Below, piece after piece: positions 10,490 through 16,889 of a stretch of DNA of 64,000 bases; position 1 is the stretch's first letter; each line of letters opens with the position of its first letter. A program made the position numbers and the translations under genes. Source of the stretch: an uncultured Thermoplasmata archaeon. Its GTDB lineage: Archaea > Thermoplasmatota > Thermoplasmata > Lutacidiplasmatales > UBA184. Location: assembly GCA_963773945.1 (NCBI GenBank), contig CAVZDD010000005.1, positions 377,077-441,076 of the forward strand. Direction: 5' to 3'. The notes beneath the pieces are model-generated. The model searched no databases, was not told the DNA's origin, and saw nothing but the letters and a program-made list of their open reading frames with translations.

Positions 10490-11625
10490 GGCGTCGAGGG
10501 CGTCCCGGGCGTAGCGGGCCGTCGGTACAAAAGATACAGGAAGAAGAGGGCGCCGGTGAACGCCATCGGGACCCCCACGGGGACCTCGGTGCCCGGGAAT
10601 GCCACGAGGGCCAGGTCGCGGGCGCCGAGCACGAAGATCGCGCCCACCAGCGCGGACGCCGGGATGACGCGGCGGTAATCAACCCCGATGAGACGACGCA
10701 CGACGTGCGGCGATACGAGGCCCACGAACCCAATGATGCCGGCGAACGCGACCGCGAAGGAGGTACAGAGCGAAGCCAGGAGGATCGTCCGGATCCGGAC
10801 TTGCCGGGCGTTGACGCCCAGGCTCTGTGCCACCTCGGGACCCAACTGCAGTAGGTTCAGGTCCCGCCCGTATACCGCGAGGAGGGCGCCGGTCGCCGCG
10901 ACCCCGGCCAGGACGATGCCCACCTGGGTCCAGGTCGCCCCGTCCAATCCTCCCAGCAGCCAGAAACTCACCTGCAGATCACCGTTCACATTGTAGAGCA
11001 GCGCGAGCACCAGGAGCGCGGAAAAAAACGAGCTGAGAGCAACGCCCGTGAGCAGCAGGGTGGTCACCGAGCTCCTCGGGCTCCGGGCCGCCACCAGGAC
11101 GACCACGCCGGAAAAGAGCGCTCCTCCGAATGCGAACAACGGGAGCGTCAGGTTGGCCTCGGCGAGCCCGATGTGCAGCACGAAGAGCAGGGCCGCACCG
11201 ACCGCCGCGCCCGAAGAAAGTCCGAGAAGATACGGGTCCGCCAGGGGGTTACGGAACGTCCCCTGCAGGGAGGCGCCCGAGAGGCCGAGCGCCGCTCCGA
11301 CGAGCAGTCCAAGCAGCACCTGGGGAACGTAGTTTTCCCAGACGATCTGGATCAGGATCGCGCAGCGGCTCGCCGATAGCGACGGGACGGCGCAGGCCCC
11401 TCCGGGAAGCGCTCCTCCCAGAAGCCGTTGCGCCACAATCCCGAGGGTAGTGGAGTACGGGATGGGGACGTCGCCCAGTAGCACGGACCCGAGGATGAGC
11501 GCCCCGAGCCCCCCGAAAAGGACCAGGAGATTTCGTCGCGGAGCGTGCCGGACGACGTCAGGGGAAGCGGATTCCCGGGCCTCGCTCCGGAGGCCGAGGT
11601 GGCGGGAAGCGTCCCCCGCGACCAA
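10486..11625 (-). CDS. ABC transporter permease, FecCD family
   Basis: About 9-10 TM helices and FecCD-type conserved blocks. It is translationally coupled to the ATPase (overlap). Confidence 0.85.
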   Translation of the reverse strand: MVAGDASRHLGLRSEARESASPDVVRHAPRRNLLVLFGGLGALILGSVLLGDVPIPYSTTLGIVAQRLLGGALPGGACAVPSLSASRCAILIQIVWENYVPQVLLGLLVGAALGLSGASLQGTFRNPLADPYLLGLSSGAAVGAALLFVLHIGLAEANLTLPLFAFGGALFSGVVVLVAARSPRSSVTTLLLTGVALSSFFSALLVLALLYNVNGDLQVSFWLLGGLDGATWTQVGIVLAGVAATGALLAVYGRDLNLLQLGPEVAQSLGVNARQVRIRTILLASLCTSFAVAFAGIIGFVGLVSPHVVRRLIGVDYRRVIPASALVGAIFVLGARDLALVAFPGTEVPVGVPMAFTGALFFLYLLYRRPATPGTPSTP

Positions 11626-14818: not shown

Positions 14819-15529
14819 GTGCCCGTCGACGTTTCCCCGCCTCGGAAGACGGCGGCGCCCCGCGCCATACTCTCGTGGAGCAGCGGAAAGGACGCCGCCT
14901 TTGCCCTCCACCGGGTGCGACAGGACCGCAGCTACGACGTGGTCGGGCTGCTCACCACAGTCGTGGCGTCGTCGGGCCGGGTGGCTACGCACGGAGTCCG
15001 AGGGGAGTTGCTCGCCCGACAGGTGGAGTCCATTGGGATTCCCCTCACCCGCGTTCGGCTCCCTCGATCCCCCTCGAACGTCGTCTACGAACGCGGGATG
15101 ACGATGGCGCTTCAGCCGTTCGTGGAAATGGGAATACGCCACGTGATCTTCGGCGACCTGTTCCTCGAGGAGATCCGCGCCTACCGGGAGCGTCAAATGT
15201 CGGAGCTGGGCCTGGAGTGCGTGTTTCCTCTGTGGAGGACCGACACGAATCTGTTGGCCCGCGAGATGCTCGGGGCGGGGCAGCGCGCCCGCCTGGTATC
15301 GGTCGACACCCGGCGACTACCGGCGTCATGGGCCGGCCGATCGTTTGACCGAGCGTTGCTGGAGGAGCTCCCCCCGGGGGTCGATCCGTGTGGCGAGAAC
15401 GGCGAGTTCCACACCTTCGTGACCGACGGGCCGGTGTTGCGGCACCCGGTGCGCGTCCGAGTGCAATCCGTCCGGGAGCGGGACGGTTTCGCCACGGCGG
15501 ACCTCCGCCTCGAAAATACGAGTGGCTGA
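14819..15529 (+). CDS. DUF71/Dph6-like (MJ0570 family) PP-loop ATP-binding protein
   Basis: AILSWSSGKDAAFAL PP-loop, with EFHTFV and GE...Y motifs typical of diphthine-ammonia-ligase-like proteins. It starts 7 nt after the preceding gene. Confidence 0.75.
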   Translation: MPVDVSPPRKTAAPRAILSWSSGKDAAFALHRVRQDRSYDVVGLLTTVVASSGRVATHGVRGELLARQVESIGIPLTRVRLPRSPSNVVYERGMTMALQPFVEMGIRHVIFGDLFLEEIRAYRERQMSELGLECVFPLWRTDTNLLAREMLGAGQRARLVSVDTRRLPASWAGRSFDRALLEELPPGVDPCGENGEFHTFVTDGPVLRHPVRVRVQSVRERDGFATADLRLENTSG

Positions 15530-15584
15530 GGGGTACCGTTCCCGCACAAAGCATAAGTCGAGGAGCGTCCCCGAGGGGACGGGA

Positions 15585-15746
15585 GGGAGCATAGGCTAAT
15601 CTGGCAGACCAGCGGGCTCCAGTCAGATCTCCCGCGAGGGGGATCTTTGCATTGGGTCAGCGGAGGGACGCTTCGGCGTACCGATGACGAGTGACTGGAG
15701 CGCGCGGAGAGACCCGCATATCGGGGTTCAAATCCCCGTGCTCCCA
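15585..15746 (+). tRNA. tRNA-Trp(CCA) with an 89-nt intron after nucleotide 37
   Basis: Hand-folded. Acceptor GGGAGCA/TGCTCCC and discriminator A. D-arm GGCT-AATCTGGCA-GACC. Anticodon stem GCGGG/CCCGC with loop CTCCAG|A. T-arm CGGGG-TTCAAAT-CCCCG. The intron occupies 15623..15711 and no CCA is encoded. Anticodon loop and T-arm are of the type known from euryarchaeal tRNA-Trp (recalled from memory, not aligned). Confidence 0.65.
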
Positions 15747-15971
15747 TTGCCCACGCCCGCATCGTAGCGTCAGCTCCAGACAATCCGGTCGCATTGGTCG
15801 GACCCCGCGACCCGCTGATCGTGGGGTCCCATTAGACAACCCTCATGGTAGAAAACGGTCGAACGCCCGTCGGGCACGGGGCCGTCGCGGAAAGTGCCCC
15901 TTTGAAATCCAGACGGGGATGCCGTTGATGAATCCGAGAGTTCTTGGCGTCATGTAACCTCAGGGTCGCCG

Positions 15972-16889
15972 ATGGATTCCTTGGACATCCGGCTCTTACG
16001 TGCGATGTTCGTAGGAAACATCCTGTCGATCGGGGGTTTCGACCCTAGACTGTCGATCCAGGAGCTCGCACGATCGGTCGGGGCCAGTCGAGTCACCGTG
16101 CGTCGCCGCCTCGCCCGTTGGCGAGATGAAGGTTTTTGCAAAAGGGTCACCACGTTTCCGAACCCGGACGCACTTGGAACCTCGTTTCAGATGCAGTCTA
16201 TCGCACTCGACCGGGGAAGAACACGGAGCCGGTCTGAGACCGCACTGGTCGACCTCCTGGAACCCGCGTTCCTCTTCCAATCCGAGGACATCTATACCCC
16301 TGTCCTCATCGTAGAGGCTCCTAAGGTCTCCGACCGCCGCCAGAGCAGTCTCCGTGAAGTTGATGGAGTGAATGTCCTCTGTCCCCCTCTACCGTTCCCA
16401 TGCCCATCTTCCTCGGTACCGCTCGGGCTGAGGGACTGGAAGATCATCCGGTCTATGCGCCGATTTCCCTTTCCCGATTGGCCCGCGGTGTCGAAGGAAG
16501 TGGGGCTGACGGTCCGCGGTTTGCAACGAAGGGTGGCACGTCTCACGCAAGGCAACGCCCTCATGTTCCATCCCGAGCTCGACTTTCGTCGTTCGTCCAG
16601 CCCGGTGGCCTGGGTTGGTGTCCTTTTCGGTAGGGACGTCGAGAAGGCGCTGTTTGAGAAGGACATGATCCAACGATACCCTGACCTCCTTCGCGTGGAG
16701 CCAATACGAACGGGAGAATGCCCACCGCATGTCCGAAATGGCAAGTGGATGACCCTGTGGAGGTCCAACCAAGCCTTTGGGCCGGTACGATCAGGGATCA
16801 GGAGAGAATCATGCGAAGCAGAAGCGGAGAATTCCACGGGTCACGACGATTCCGGCAAGCGACTCTGTCATTCTTGGTCGCAGGGGTGA
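15972..16889 (+). CDS. tandem-HTH transcriptional regulator (two Lrp/AsnC-type HTH modules)
   Basis: LDIRLLRAMFVGN...IQELARSVGASRVTVRRRLARWRDEG, followed by a second module DWKIIRSMRR...VSKEVGLTVRGLQRRVARL. The 3' end overlaps the next gene, so the true stop or frame is uncertain. Confidence 0.5.
   Translation: MDSLDIRLLRAMFVGNILSIGGFDPRLSIQELARSVGASRVTVRRRLARWRDEGFCKRVTTFPNPDALGTSFQMQSIALDRGRTRSRSETALVDLLEPAFLFQSEDIYTPVLIVEAPKVSDRRQSSLREVDGVNVLCPPLPFPCPSSSVPLGLRDWKIIRSMRRFPFPDWPAVSKEVGLTVRGLQRRVARLTQGNALMFHPELDFRRSSSPVAWVGVLFGRDVEKALFEKDMIQRYPDLLRVEPIRTGECPPHVRNGKWMTLWRSNQAFGPVRSGIRRESCEAEAENSTGHDDSGKRLCHSWSQG

Follow-up and report, generated by a model that had tools for sequence, protein, structure and literature searches.

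A tRNA-Trp intron with a single predicted kink-turn in uncultured Thermoplasmata, a candidate reduced form of the euryarchaeal box C/D guide

The guide RNAs carried by the introns of archaeal tRNA-Trp genes are a textbook example of self-directed RNA modification ahead of splicing, and the intron of the Haloferax volcanii pre-tRNA-Trp was reportedly described as a box C/D guide by Clouet d'Orval et al. in 2001 and by Singh et al. in 2004. In this organism the intron guides the formation of Cm34 and Um39 on the pre-tRNA, acting in trans or in cis, and is excised as a circle (PMC2584109, PMC7714728). In the tRNA-Trp intron small RNAs (sRNAs) of 27 archaea, the elements follow each other in the order box C, a 12-nucleotide (nt) guide for position 39, box D', a loop, box C', a 12-nt guide for position 34 and box D, and in haloarchaea the C boxes read GGACGA or UGACGA and the D boxes CCGA (PMC2584109, Additional file 4). 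Here, we consider a gene of this kind in what we call the window, i.e. a stretch of 64,000 nt from contig CAVZDD010000005.1 of an uncultured Thermoplasmata archaeon, in which positions 15585-15746 are a tRNA-Trp(CCA) gene split at the 37/38 site by an 89-nt intron. While the gene itself is ordinary and the intron-borne guide is a system already known, on our best reading it is the reduced form of the guide, with a single kink-turn, that is new. More precisely, the reading that we favour, with modest confidence, is that the intron descends from the euryarchaeal tRNA-Trp box C/D guide, that it has kept the internal kink-turn and would guide the methylation of C39, and that its second antisense element would act as a clamp.

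The window was scanned with ARAGORN in its default mode and with introns allowed, with Rfam over its whole length at the gathering thresholds, and with cmscan on short regions. Neither default ARAGORN nor the whole-window Rfam scan at gathering thresholds finds a tRNA at 15585-15746, because the long intron hides it from both. With introns allowed, ARAGORN makes a single call in the 64-kb window, a tRNA-Trp(cca) at 15585..15746 on the plus strand with 73 nt in the mature form and an 89-nt intron, and the tRNA family RF00005 covers the same segment over its full model positions 1-71 with 42 bits (gathering score 29, E 8.9e-8), the alignment having a 93-nt insertion within the anticodon loop. 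The intron boundaries proposed in a first-pass annotation of this DNA (15623..15711, at 37/38) turn out to be exact to the nucleotide, as judged from ARAGORN, RF00005 and the bulge register discussed below. Its hand-folded cloverleaf is also borne out, since the hand-spliced sequence is likewise called tRNA-Trp by ARAGORN, with the 7-nt anticodon loop CUCCAGA and the anticodon CCA at 15619-15621. The discriminator base is A73 (A15746), an identity element of archaeal tRNA-Trp. The euryarchaeal type that had been suggested for the T arm and the anticodon loop is consistent with the relatives found, which among the matches listed are all metagenome-assembled genomes (MAGs) of Thermoplasmata.

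The relatives were collected by scanning one genome per species with a pattern derived from the anticodon arm and the T arm, which gave at least 120 loci. The window shares its exon sequence and intron layout with at least 37 genomes, all labelled Thermoplasmata (or mis-binned) and mostly from soil or peat, and a metagenome scan yielded five further contigs with the same intron architecture. This recurrence means that the layout is not a chance fold. All alignments and counts given below for the clade comprise 38 sequences, namely the window and 37 genomes among the matches listed. Read from 5' to 3', the intron begins in these sequences with a U, which is followed by a first hairpin (hairpin 1), N-GA-W-W (36/38), (A/U)GGGUC(U/A)G, CGGA and a second hairpin (hairpin 2, GG...CC), after which come three nt ending with U, GACGA, (G/U/A)UGACUGGAGCG, CGC, GGAG and AG. 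The sequences CGGAG and GACGA and the last 24 nt of the intron are invariant or nearly so.

The internal CGGA and UGACGA can be identified as box D' and box C', respectively, because they are in register with the published tRNA-Trp intron guides. Thus, the M. mazei guide ACAACGGGUCUA-CCGA aligns in register with GCAUUGGGUCAG-CGGA of the window, with the third G (15656) opposite C39 and five nt from the box. Hairpin 2, which separates the two boxes, has six pairs with compensatory changes (97.9% of the cells are paired in the alignment), the first nt after CGGA pairs in each of the 38 sequences with the nt located three positions ahead of GA in C', and GACGA of C' is also invariant in 38/38. 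The helix, the 3-nt loop and the tandem G-A geometry make this a kink-turn arrangement, and the two boxes are accordingly predicted to adopt the geometry of a kink-turn or a K-loop. It can be pointed out that the C at position 5 of C' and the G at position 2 of D' are able to pair; canonical boxes have U-U there. The haloarchaeal guides are similar in that their boxes also deviate from the consensus (UGACGA; CCGA there, CGGA here) and that a long hairpin lies between D' and C'. The first-pass annotation had noted GAUGACGA (15683-15690) and GACUGG (15693-15698), which are both present, as well as the lack of CUGA, which indeed occurs nowhere in the intron, and it had considered a box C/D guide function to be no more than suggested by these motifs. 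With respect to the kink-turn this suggestion can now be strengthened, as GAUGACGA is a box C' that pairs with the CGGA box D' in the required geometry in 38/38 sequences, but a box C is missing.

The element in front of box D' is placed such that a G opposite C39 sits five nt from the box in 36/38 sequences, within 6-8 contiguous pairs. In the window, UGGGUCAG forms six contiguous pairs, to G37 (or intron G-1), A38, C39, C40, C41 and G42, and in most relatives the duplex with the spliced tRNA amounts to 7-8 pairs. The host gene, the 37/38 site and the distance of five nt between D' and the nucleotide opposite position 39 are all as in the euryarchaeal tRNA-Trp guide, whereas position 39 is a C in the window and a U there. 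The targets named in the first-pass annotation, C34 and U39, are therefore only partly retained: the antisense element is in the N+5 register for position 39, but that position is a C, and the half of the guide directed to C34 is not intact, with CGCG at the place of box D. Of the 10-12-nt antisense elements to positions 34 and 39 that it proposed to look for, the former is present as 10 bp to G31-G37 and intron nt 1-3, while the six pairs at position 39 do not reach this length.

As in the euryarchaeal guide, the second antisense element follows box C' and is directed to the exon 1-intron junction around C34. It spans G27 to intron nt 3 with one mismatch, 15692-15701 pairing with G31-G37 and intron nt 1-3 (10 bp) and 15703-15705 with G29, C28 and G27, and these 10+3 bp are found in 38/38 sequences. 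The introns of Thermoplasma acidophilum and T. volcanium have the same D guide, GUGACUGGAxCx (PMC2584109). The Rfam family RF01133 (sR3; consensus ggagAUGAUGAacAaCGGGUCUgCUGAauugUGAUGAaCCGU.UGGAGCaCUGAgc), which is the canonical tRNA-Trp intron guide, has the antisense cores GGGUC and UGGAGC in the same order as the window. What differs is the box that comes next. The box D site can be defined as the four nt five positions downstream of the base opposite C34, ca 12 nt after C'. In the clade this site (15703-15706 in the window) reads CGCG in 37 sequences and CGUG in one, while in 75 tRNA-Trp introns from outside the clade, among the matches listed, it reads NNGA in 62/75 (ATGA 42, CTGA 8, others). 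A second CGGA is located 2 nt downstream of the site, its GGA being a strand of the bulge-helix-bulge (BHB) splicing motif. Besides having CGCG for box D, the window differs from the euryarchaeal guide in having no terminal stem, and in having a new 5' hairpin at the place of the outer BHB helix h'.

Box C (RUGAUGA) was not found near the 5' end of the intron in the window, the 5' half of which contains no free GA. In the clade, 36/38 sequences have the N-GA-W-W mentioned above at the box C site, with a perfect GUGAUGA in L102 and L106, whereas the GA of this remnant is missing from the window, from L010 and from four metagenome contigs. The C-to-D' spacing of the clade is variable, 7-12 nt, and not the 12 nt of canonical sRNAs. 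Several arrangements for a second, C/D-type kink-turn were tried and rejected. Combining the box C remnant with the 3' CGGA through GAG/CUC-type helices, building a k-junction whose third arm is the BHB helix, or assuming a circularised intron all gave geometries that are inconsistent across the 38 sequences, and with hairpin 1 in the role of the canonical helix and UCA in that of a D-like strand, an A-C pair would be needed at 2b-2n and CA/UG would stay unpaired in spite of being complementary. The window itself offers no GA for such a kink-turn.

RF01133 has no match in 15500-15850 of the window even at E<=10. It does match the Poseidoniia intron L012 (2164-2217, minus strand) with 43.4 bits vs a gathering score of 41, while the introns of L090, L097, L103 and L010 are below the gathering threshold, which means that the family under-detects Thermoplasmatota variants. 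Since it has neither box C nor box D and is not recognised by the Rfam model, the intron of the window is to be regarded as a reduced variant and not as a member of the box C/D tRNA-Trp guide family.

The canonical Thermoplasmatota introns (T. acidophilum, T. volcanium, L090, L012, L097 and Methanomassiliicoccales) have near-identical anticodon-arm exons, and the introns of L090, L095 and L097 end, like that of the window, with GGAGAG at the cut. They differ in that all four boxes are present, the spacers measure 12 nt and a terminal stem also serves as h'. In L090 this stem, GAUGGA/UCCAUC, is both the sRNA stem and the BHB h', and CUGA comes just before its 3' strand. L090 represents the ancestral layout, of which the clade has lost the 3' stem strand and box D, with hairpin 1 coming after the 5' bulge instead. 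As a separate observation, the intron of L045 (Thermoplasmata YS4.bin60) shares hairpin 1 and the 3' antisense element with the window clade, and its kink-turn is made up of CUGA, a hairpin and GAUGACGA.

A single internal kink-turn or K-loop between two antisense elements, only one of which is followed by a D-type box in register, is also found in tRNA-Trp introns of DPANN archaea (Micrarchaeota L035, L100, L104; Altiarchaeota L019, L040, L066, L105). Unlike in the window, however, the order in these introns (also in Undinarchaeota L025) is mirrored, that is, antisense-34, box D, a short hairpin, box C and antisense-39; the box would serve C34, and there is no D' box in register. From their sequences, they are apparently an independent reduction to one kink-turn. 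To our knowledge, there is no published description of DPANN tRNA-Trp introns with this mirror order. A tRNA-Trp intron with a single kink-turn was not found described in the literature searched, the coverage of which is incomplete.

The two hairpins are well supported by the alignment. Their sequences vary between the genomes, yet each of them folds in every case. Hairpins 1 and 2 have 12 testable pairs, for which 96.8% of the cells are paired vs 86.4% in shuffles, with 44 double-change cells vs 9.4 in the shuffles, and the best slid register reaches 54.2%. Counted from the hairpin bases, up to six pair types occur at single positions. The first nucleotides of the intron and the guide also covary between lineages, namely UCA/UGA in the window clade, UUA/UAA in Methanomassiliicoccales, UGA/UCA in L090 and CUC/GAG in L007. 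Closer to the window, L010 (isolate JOPF021) is syntenic with it upstream of the tRNA at ca 70% nucleotide identity, and four metagenome contigs from the Joint Genome Institute (JGI) are syntenic with the window at ca 73%; a contig search with the upstream gene returned only short Logan contigs, which end inside the tRNA. In six genomes or contigs of the window sub-clade, the exons are 100% and the intron 84-88/89 (94-99%) identical, with flanks at ca 70-73%. Among the few intron differences within the sub-clade is a compensatory one, by which A-U becomes C-G in hairpin 2 of L010. This conservation compared to the flanks indicates that the whole intron is under selection, 15646-15652 included.

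The segment 15646-15656 deserves a separate comment. In this segment, UUUGCAUUGGG is almost perfectly kept across genomes that are ca 27-30% diverged in the flanks, and it stands where the other relatives have the box C remnant. RNAfold pairs the UUUGCAU / 15646-15656 segment with the C' box region (15681-15690), and in this model the pairing of 15646-15652 might mask the kink-turn. UUUGCAU was also considered as an extension of the D' guide onto C43-U47 of the tRNA, but there is no complementarity. In the first-pass annotation, TTTGCATTGGG (15646-15656) was said to resemble a family of dyads. This resemblance is at chance level, as the 10 matches in the window with <=2 mismatches compare with 8.06 expected and 30/100 shuffles reach this number.

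As regards splicing, the exons meet the intron at ...CUCCAG and ACCCGC, respectively. Owing to the repeated AG (CCAG/UCAG...GGAGAG/ACC, with the cuts as slashes), the cut is ambiguous by 2 nt, i.e. three positions lead to the same mature tRNA, and ARAGORN prints the intron position as 36-37. The BHB register sets the cuts at 15622/15623 and 15711/15712, that is, at 37/38. Its central helix consists of 4 bp between C32-C35 (15617-15620) and GGAG (15706-15709), and the two bulges, of 3 nt each and on opposite strands, are A15621 (A36), G15622 (G37) and U15623 on one side and A15710, G15711 and A15712 (A38) on the other; the motif adjoins the 5-bp anticodon stem. All of these nucleotides are invariant in 38/38, such that covariation does not bear on the bulges and the central helix. 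A GGAG-NN/A ending is also seen in other lineages (L090, L095, L097). The first-pass annotation had named a splicing-competent BHB geometry as the point to be checked, and the outcome is mixed: both bulges and the 4-bp central helix are there, but a continuous outer helix h' was not found in the intron, C15624 facing C15705 and A15625 facing G15704 without pairing. Nor does a continuous h' form in the alternative registers that the 2-nt splice ambiguity allows. In its place, a local hairpin (15625-15646) follows the 5' bulge, which would turn the BHB form into a three-way junction. At this site, a hairpin is present in 38/38 sequences, with differing primary sequence and with the base CAGG...CCUG in most of them, and in 35/38 it begins at intron nt 2, right after the 3-nt 5' bulge.

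Two conformers of the pre-tRNA have to be considered. With RNAfold, the cis duplex between the 3' antisense element and exon 1 has an energy of −85.2 kcal/mol vs −67.8 kcal/mol for the cloverleaf with the BHB. RNAalifold on the MAFFT alignment also gives the cis-duplex conformer, together with a GUC/GAC pairing that is incompatible with the kink-turn and that we take to be an artefact of invariant columns. In the mechanism that we propose, the gene would be transcribed from its own promoter, with elements resembling a TATA box and the transcription factor B recognition element (BRE). The nascent pre-tRNA would first be open, with the 3' antisense element (15691-15705) clamping G27-G37 and the first three nt of the intron. 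Such a clamp would hold the anticodon stem open and leave its 3' strand (A38-G42) free for the D' guide. L7Ae would then bind the single kink-turn and recruit Nop5-fibrillarin, UGGGUCAG would pair with positions 37/38-42, and C39, five nt from D', would receive the 2'-O-methyl group. The RNA could subsequently refold to the cloverleaf with the BHB (anticodon stem, bulge AG/A, CUCC/GGAG, bulge AG/U), with hairpin 1 stacking on the CUCC/GGAG helix and standing in for h'. Finally, EndA would cut at the two sites given above, the exons would be ligated and the intron would be released, probably as a circle. The steps that are specific to the clade, that is, the methylation of C39, the protein binding and the splicing route, are put forward as a proposal. 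With more reserve, and as a possibility that we find less likely than not in its entirety, the soil Thermoplasmata clade as a whole would carry a half guide with one kink-turn that methylates only position 39, the former C34 guide would have become the clamp, a local hairpin would complete the splicing motif, and the mirrored reduction in DPANN would have occurred independently.

A number of points weigh against the C39 guide with a clamp. With 6 bp in the window and mostly 7-8 bp in the relatives, the D' duplex falls short of the 10-12 bp found in typical archaeal guides, and efficient archaeal methylation normally needs both the C/D and the C'/D' ribonucleoproteins (RNPs), 12 nt apart. A GA is retained after hairpin 1 in 36/38 relatives, and a partner for it was not found in the registers tried. 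In L045, UUGCUAAG, which precedes D', lacks complementarity to positions 38-42, and since the kink-turn is kept there nonetheless, it may have a role other than guiding. On the splicing side, the intron has no continuous h' helix, and hairpin 1 of the window does not begin before nt 3 unless a C2-G27 pair is formed over a UU bulge. A strict hBHBh' motif has been reported to be required by euryarchaeal endonucleases (PMC7714728, Haloferax).

One could argue that nothing has been lost and that the intron is a complete dual guide, in which CGGA at 15705-15708 is a displaced box D that works with a box C substitute, and C32 (or C34, with relaxed spacing) is methylated in addition to C39. This 3' CGGA is identical to D', with GCGGAG at both places, and if it is taken as box D, the stretch N1-N13 is complementary to C28-A(intron 3) apart from one mismatch, N5 being opposite C32. 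Furthermore, the Micrarchaeota introns L100 and L104 have CGGA as box D directly after GAGCG, and the box C remnant of the clade, with its perfect versions in L102 and L106, would also fit. However, the GGA is the 3' strand of the BHB central helix, and the GGAG-NN ending occurs also where a normal box D lies upstream (L090, L095, L097), such that the 3' CGGA is explained without a box function. No kink-turn helix could be drawn beside the 3' CGGA and the box C remnant in several registers, the C-to-D' spacing varies, and the window and its five closest relatives, among the matches listed, lack a free GA in the 5' half of the intron, for which reason a second kink-turn cannot form in the window. 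We consider the dual guide to be very improbable. More weight, although still not much, can be given to the possibility that the guide is dead, i.e. that the intron is a decaying remnant kept for its splicing fold, with the antisense elements and the hairpins serving folding and recognition by the endonuclease, and with no methylation. The loss of two of the four boxes, the short D' duplex and the silence on the window of sR3, which does detect L012, are all in line with this, and the deletion of the H. volcanii intron is tolerated, as far as the citation of Joardar et al. 2008 in PMC7714728 goes, which makes the guide dispensable in principle. On the other hand, splicing alone leaves unexplained why CGGA and GACGA are invariant in 38/38 with their distance to hairpin 2 fixed at exactly 3 nt, why the G opposite C39 keeps its distance of five nt from D' in 36/38 while the adjoining sequence varies, and why the intron evolves as slowly as the exons. 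A dead guide thus seems unlikely to us.

The N+5 register to C39 in 36/38 would be needless also if the kink-turn were purely a platform for L7Ae that chaperones the pre-tRNA into the splice-competent form, or that stabilises a circular intron for a role in trans, instead of positioning fibrillarin. Such a role is brought to mind by L045, which has hairpin 1, the kink-turn and the 3' antisense element without the complementarity to 38-42, but this is a single outlier sequence. The cis duplex is predicted to lie 17 kcal/mol below the BHB conformer, which makes a remodelling factor plausible, and the extreme conservation extends to segments with no assigned role, such as 15646-15652. In our judgement a pure platform has little probability, and the guiding of C39 from a single kink-turn, with the second antisense element as a clamp, is the reading that we retain.

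If the clade indeed carries the half guide outlined above, one C'/D' RNP would be enough to guide methylation in vivo, a euryarchaeal splicing endonuclease would accept a non-contiguous h', and the guide module would be attached to a three-way junction facing the 5' splice bulge. Introns that work as proposed would be natural test cases both for methylation in vivo by one C'/D' RNP and for the strictness of the hBHBh' requirement. The form that appears to be new comprises at least 43 sequences from uncultured Thermoplasmata, which would retain only the internal kink-turn and the position-39 guide, with an antisense element replacing box D and a local hairpin providing the outer helix of the splicing motif. 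For annotation it matters that default tRNA and Rfam scans overlook the gene entirely and that the Rfam sR3 model fails to recognise the intron variant. As a variant, it should be of moderate interest to those working on sRNPs and tRNA splicing. The coordinates of the features are collected in Table 1.

Table 1. Features of the tRNA-Trp locus, with positions in the window.
Feature	Positions	Strand	Description and basis
BRE/TATA-like element CAAAGCATAAGTC	15547..15559	+	~26-38 nt upstream of mature 5' end; putative promoter
tRNA-Trp exon 1	15585..15622	+	acceptor 5' strand, D arm, anticodon-stem 5' strand, loop to G37; ARAGORN, RF00005
Intron	15623..15711	+	89 nt, canonical 37/38 site; ARAGORN, RF00005
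Hairpin 1 AGAUCUCCC-GCGA-GGGGGAUCU	15625..15646	+	RNAfold; putative role as helix h'
UUUGCAU	15646..15652	+	site of box C remnant N-GA-W-W in 36/38; without GA in the window
D' antisense element UGGGUCAG	15653..15660	+	N5 = G15656 opposite C39 (15713)
Box D' variant CGGA	15661..15664	+	invariant in 38/38; directly adjoins hairpin 2
Hairpin 2 GGGACGC-UUCG-GCGUACC	15665..15682	+	canonical (C) helix of predicted C'/D' kink-turn; 18 nt
Kink loop GAU + box C' UGACGA	15683..15690	+	loop 3 nt, its last nt = first of C' (15685-15690)
3' antisense element GUGACUGGAGCG + CGC	15691..15705	+	pairing table; minimum free energy fold, alifold
GGAG (3' strand of BHB central helix) + AG of 3' bulge	15706..15711	+	read from sequence; invariant in 38/38
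tRNA-Trp exon 2	15712..15746	+	A38, anticodon-stem 3' strand, 4-nt variable loop, T arm, acceptor 3' strand, A73

Exon 1 is constant across the 38 sequences except for four D-loop/position-26 columns, and exon 2 ends without an encoded CCA. The D stem consists of G10-C25, G11-C24, a C12-A23 mismatch (15596 / 15607) and U13-G22. The mismatch is a feature of the lineage and not an error, since it is invariant in all 38 sequences. Upstream of the gene, elements of the CAAAGCATAAGTC type (CAAAGGATATCT, AAACCATAAGCC and similar) are found at equal distance in 15 relatives, the flanks of which have otherwise diverged. The stretch from the promoter-like element to the 5' end of the tRNA contains a perfect inverted repeat, CGTCCCC-GA-GGGGACG (15567-15582), which among the matches listed is retained, slightly changed, only in the closest relatives L001, L123, L124 and L126. 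The weak Rfam matches to mascRNA, PhotoRC-I and sR55 were rejected as chance or partial box-motif matches; that of PhotoRC-I falls by chance on this inverted repeat, and that of the archaeal sR55 brings its box C end onto the C' region of the window.

The neighbours of the tRNA gene are an asparagine-synthase-like gene and a Diphthami_syn_2 gene (ending at 15529) on the upstream side, and a helix-turn-helix (HTH) regulator starting at 15972 on the downstream side. A 196-aa open reading frame (15193-15783, minus strand) runs antisense to the tRNA gene over its full length and gives no Pfam match; it is almost certainly spurious, an artefact of a high-GC genome (the G+C content of the window is 64%).

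In the wider set of relatives, 121 regions among the matches listed (window included) were tested with ARAGORN, and 113 of them yield a tRNA-Trp with an intron, nearly all of these being from Thermoplasmata, Methanomassiliicoccales and other archaeal MAGs. An archaeal intron-containing tRNA-Trp is also present in assemblies labelled 'bacterium DX1.bin10', 'Faecalibacterium sp. CAG:74' and 'Eggerthellaceae bacterium' (L027, L032 and L070), the contigs in question being probably mis-binned archaeal ones. On one metagenome contig (L125), ARAGORN calls, in addition to the tRNA-Trp, a tRNA-Arg(ccg) at 10863-11027 with a 68-nt intron at the non-canonical position 31, a call that may be spurious.

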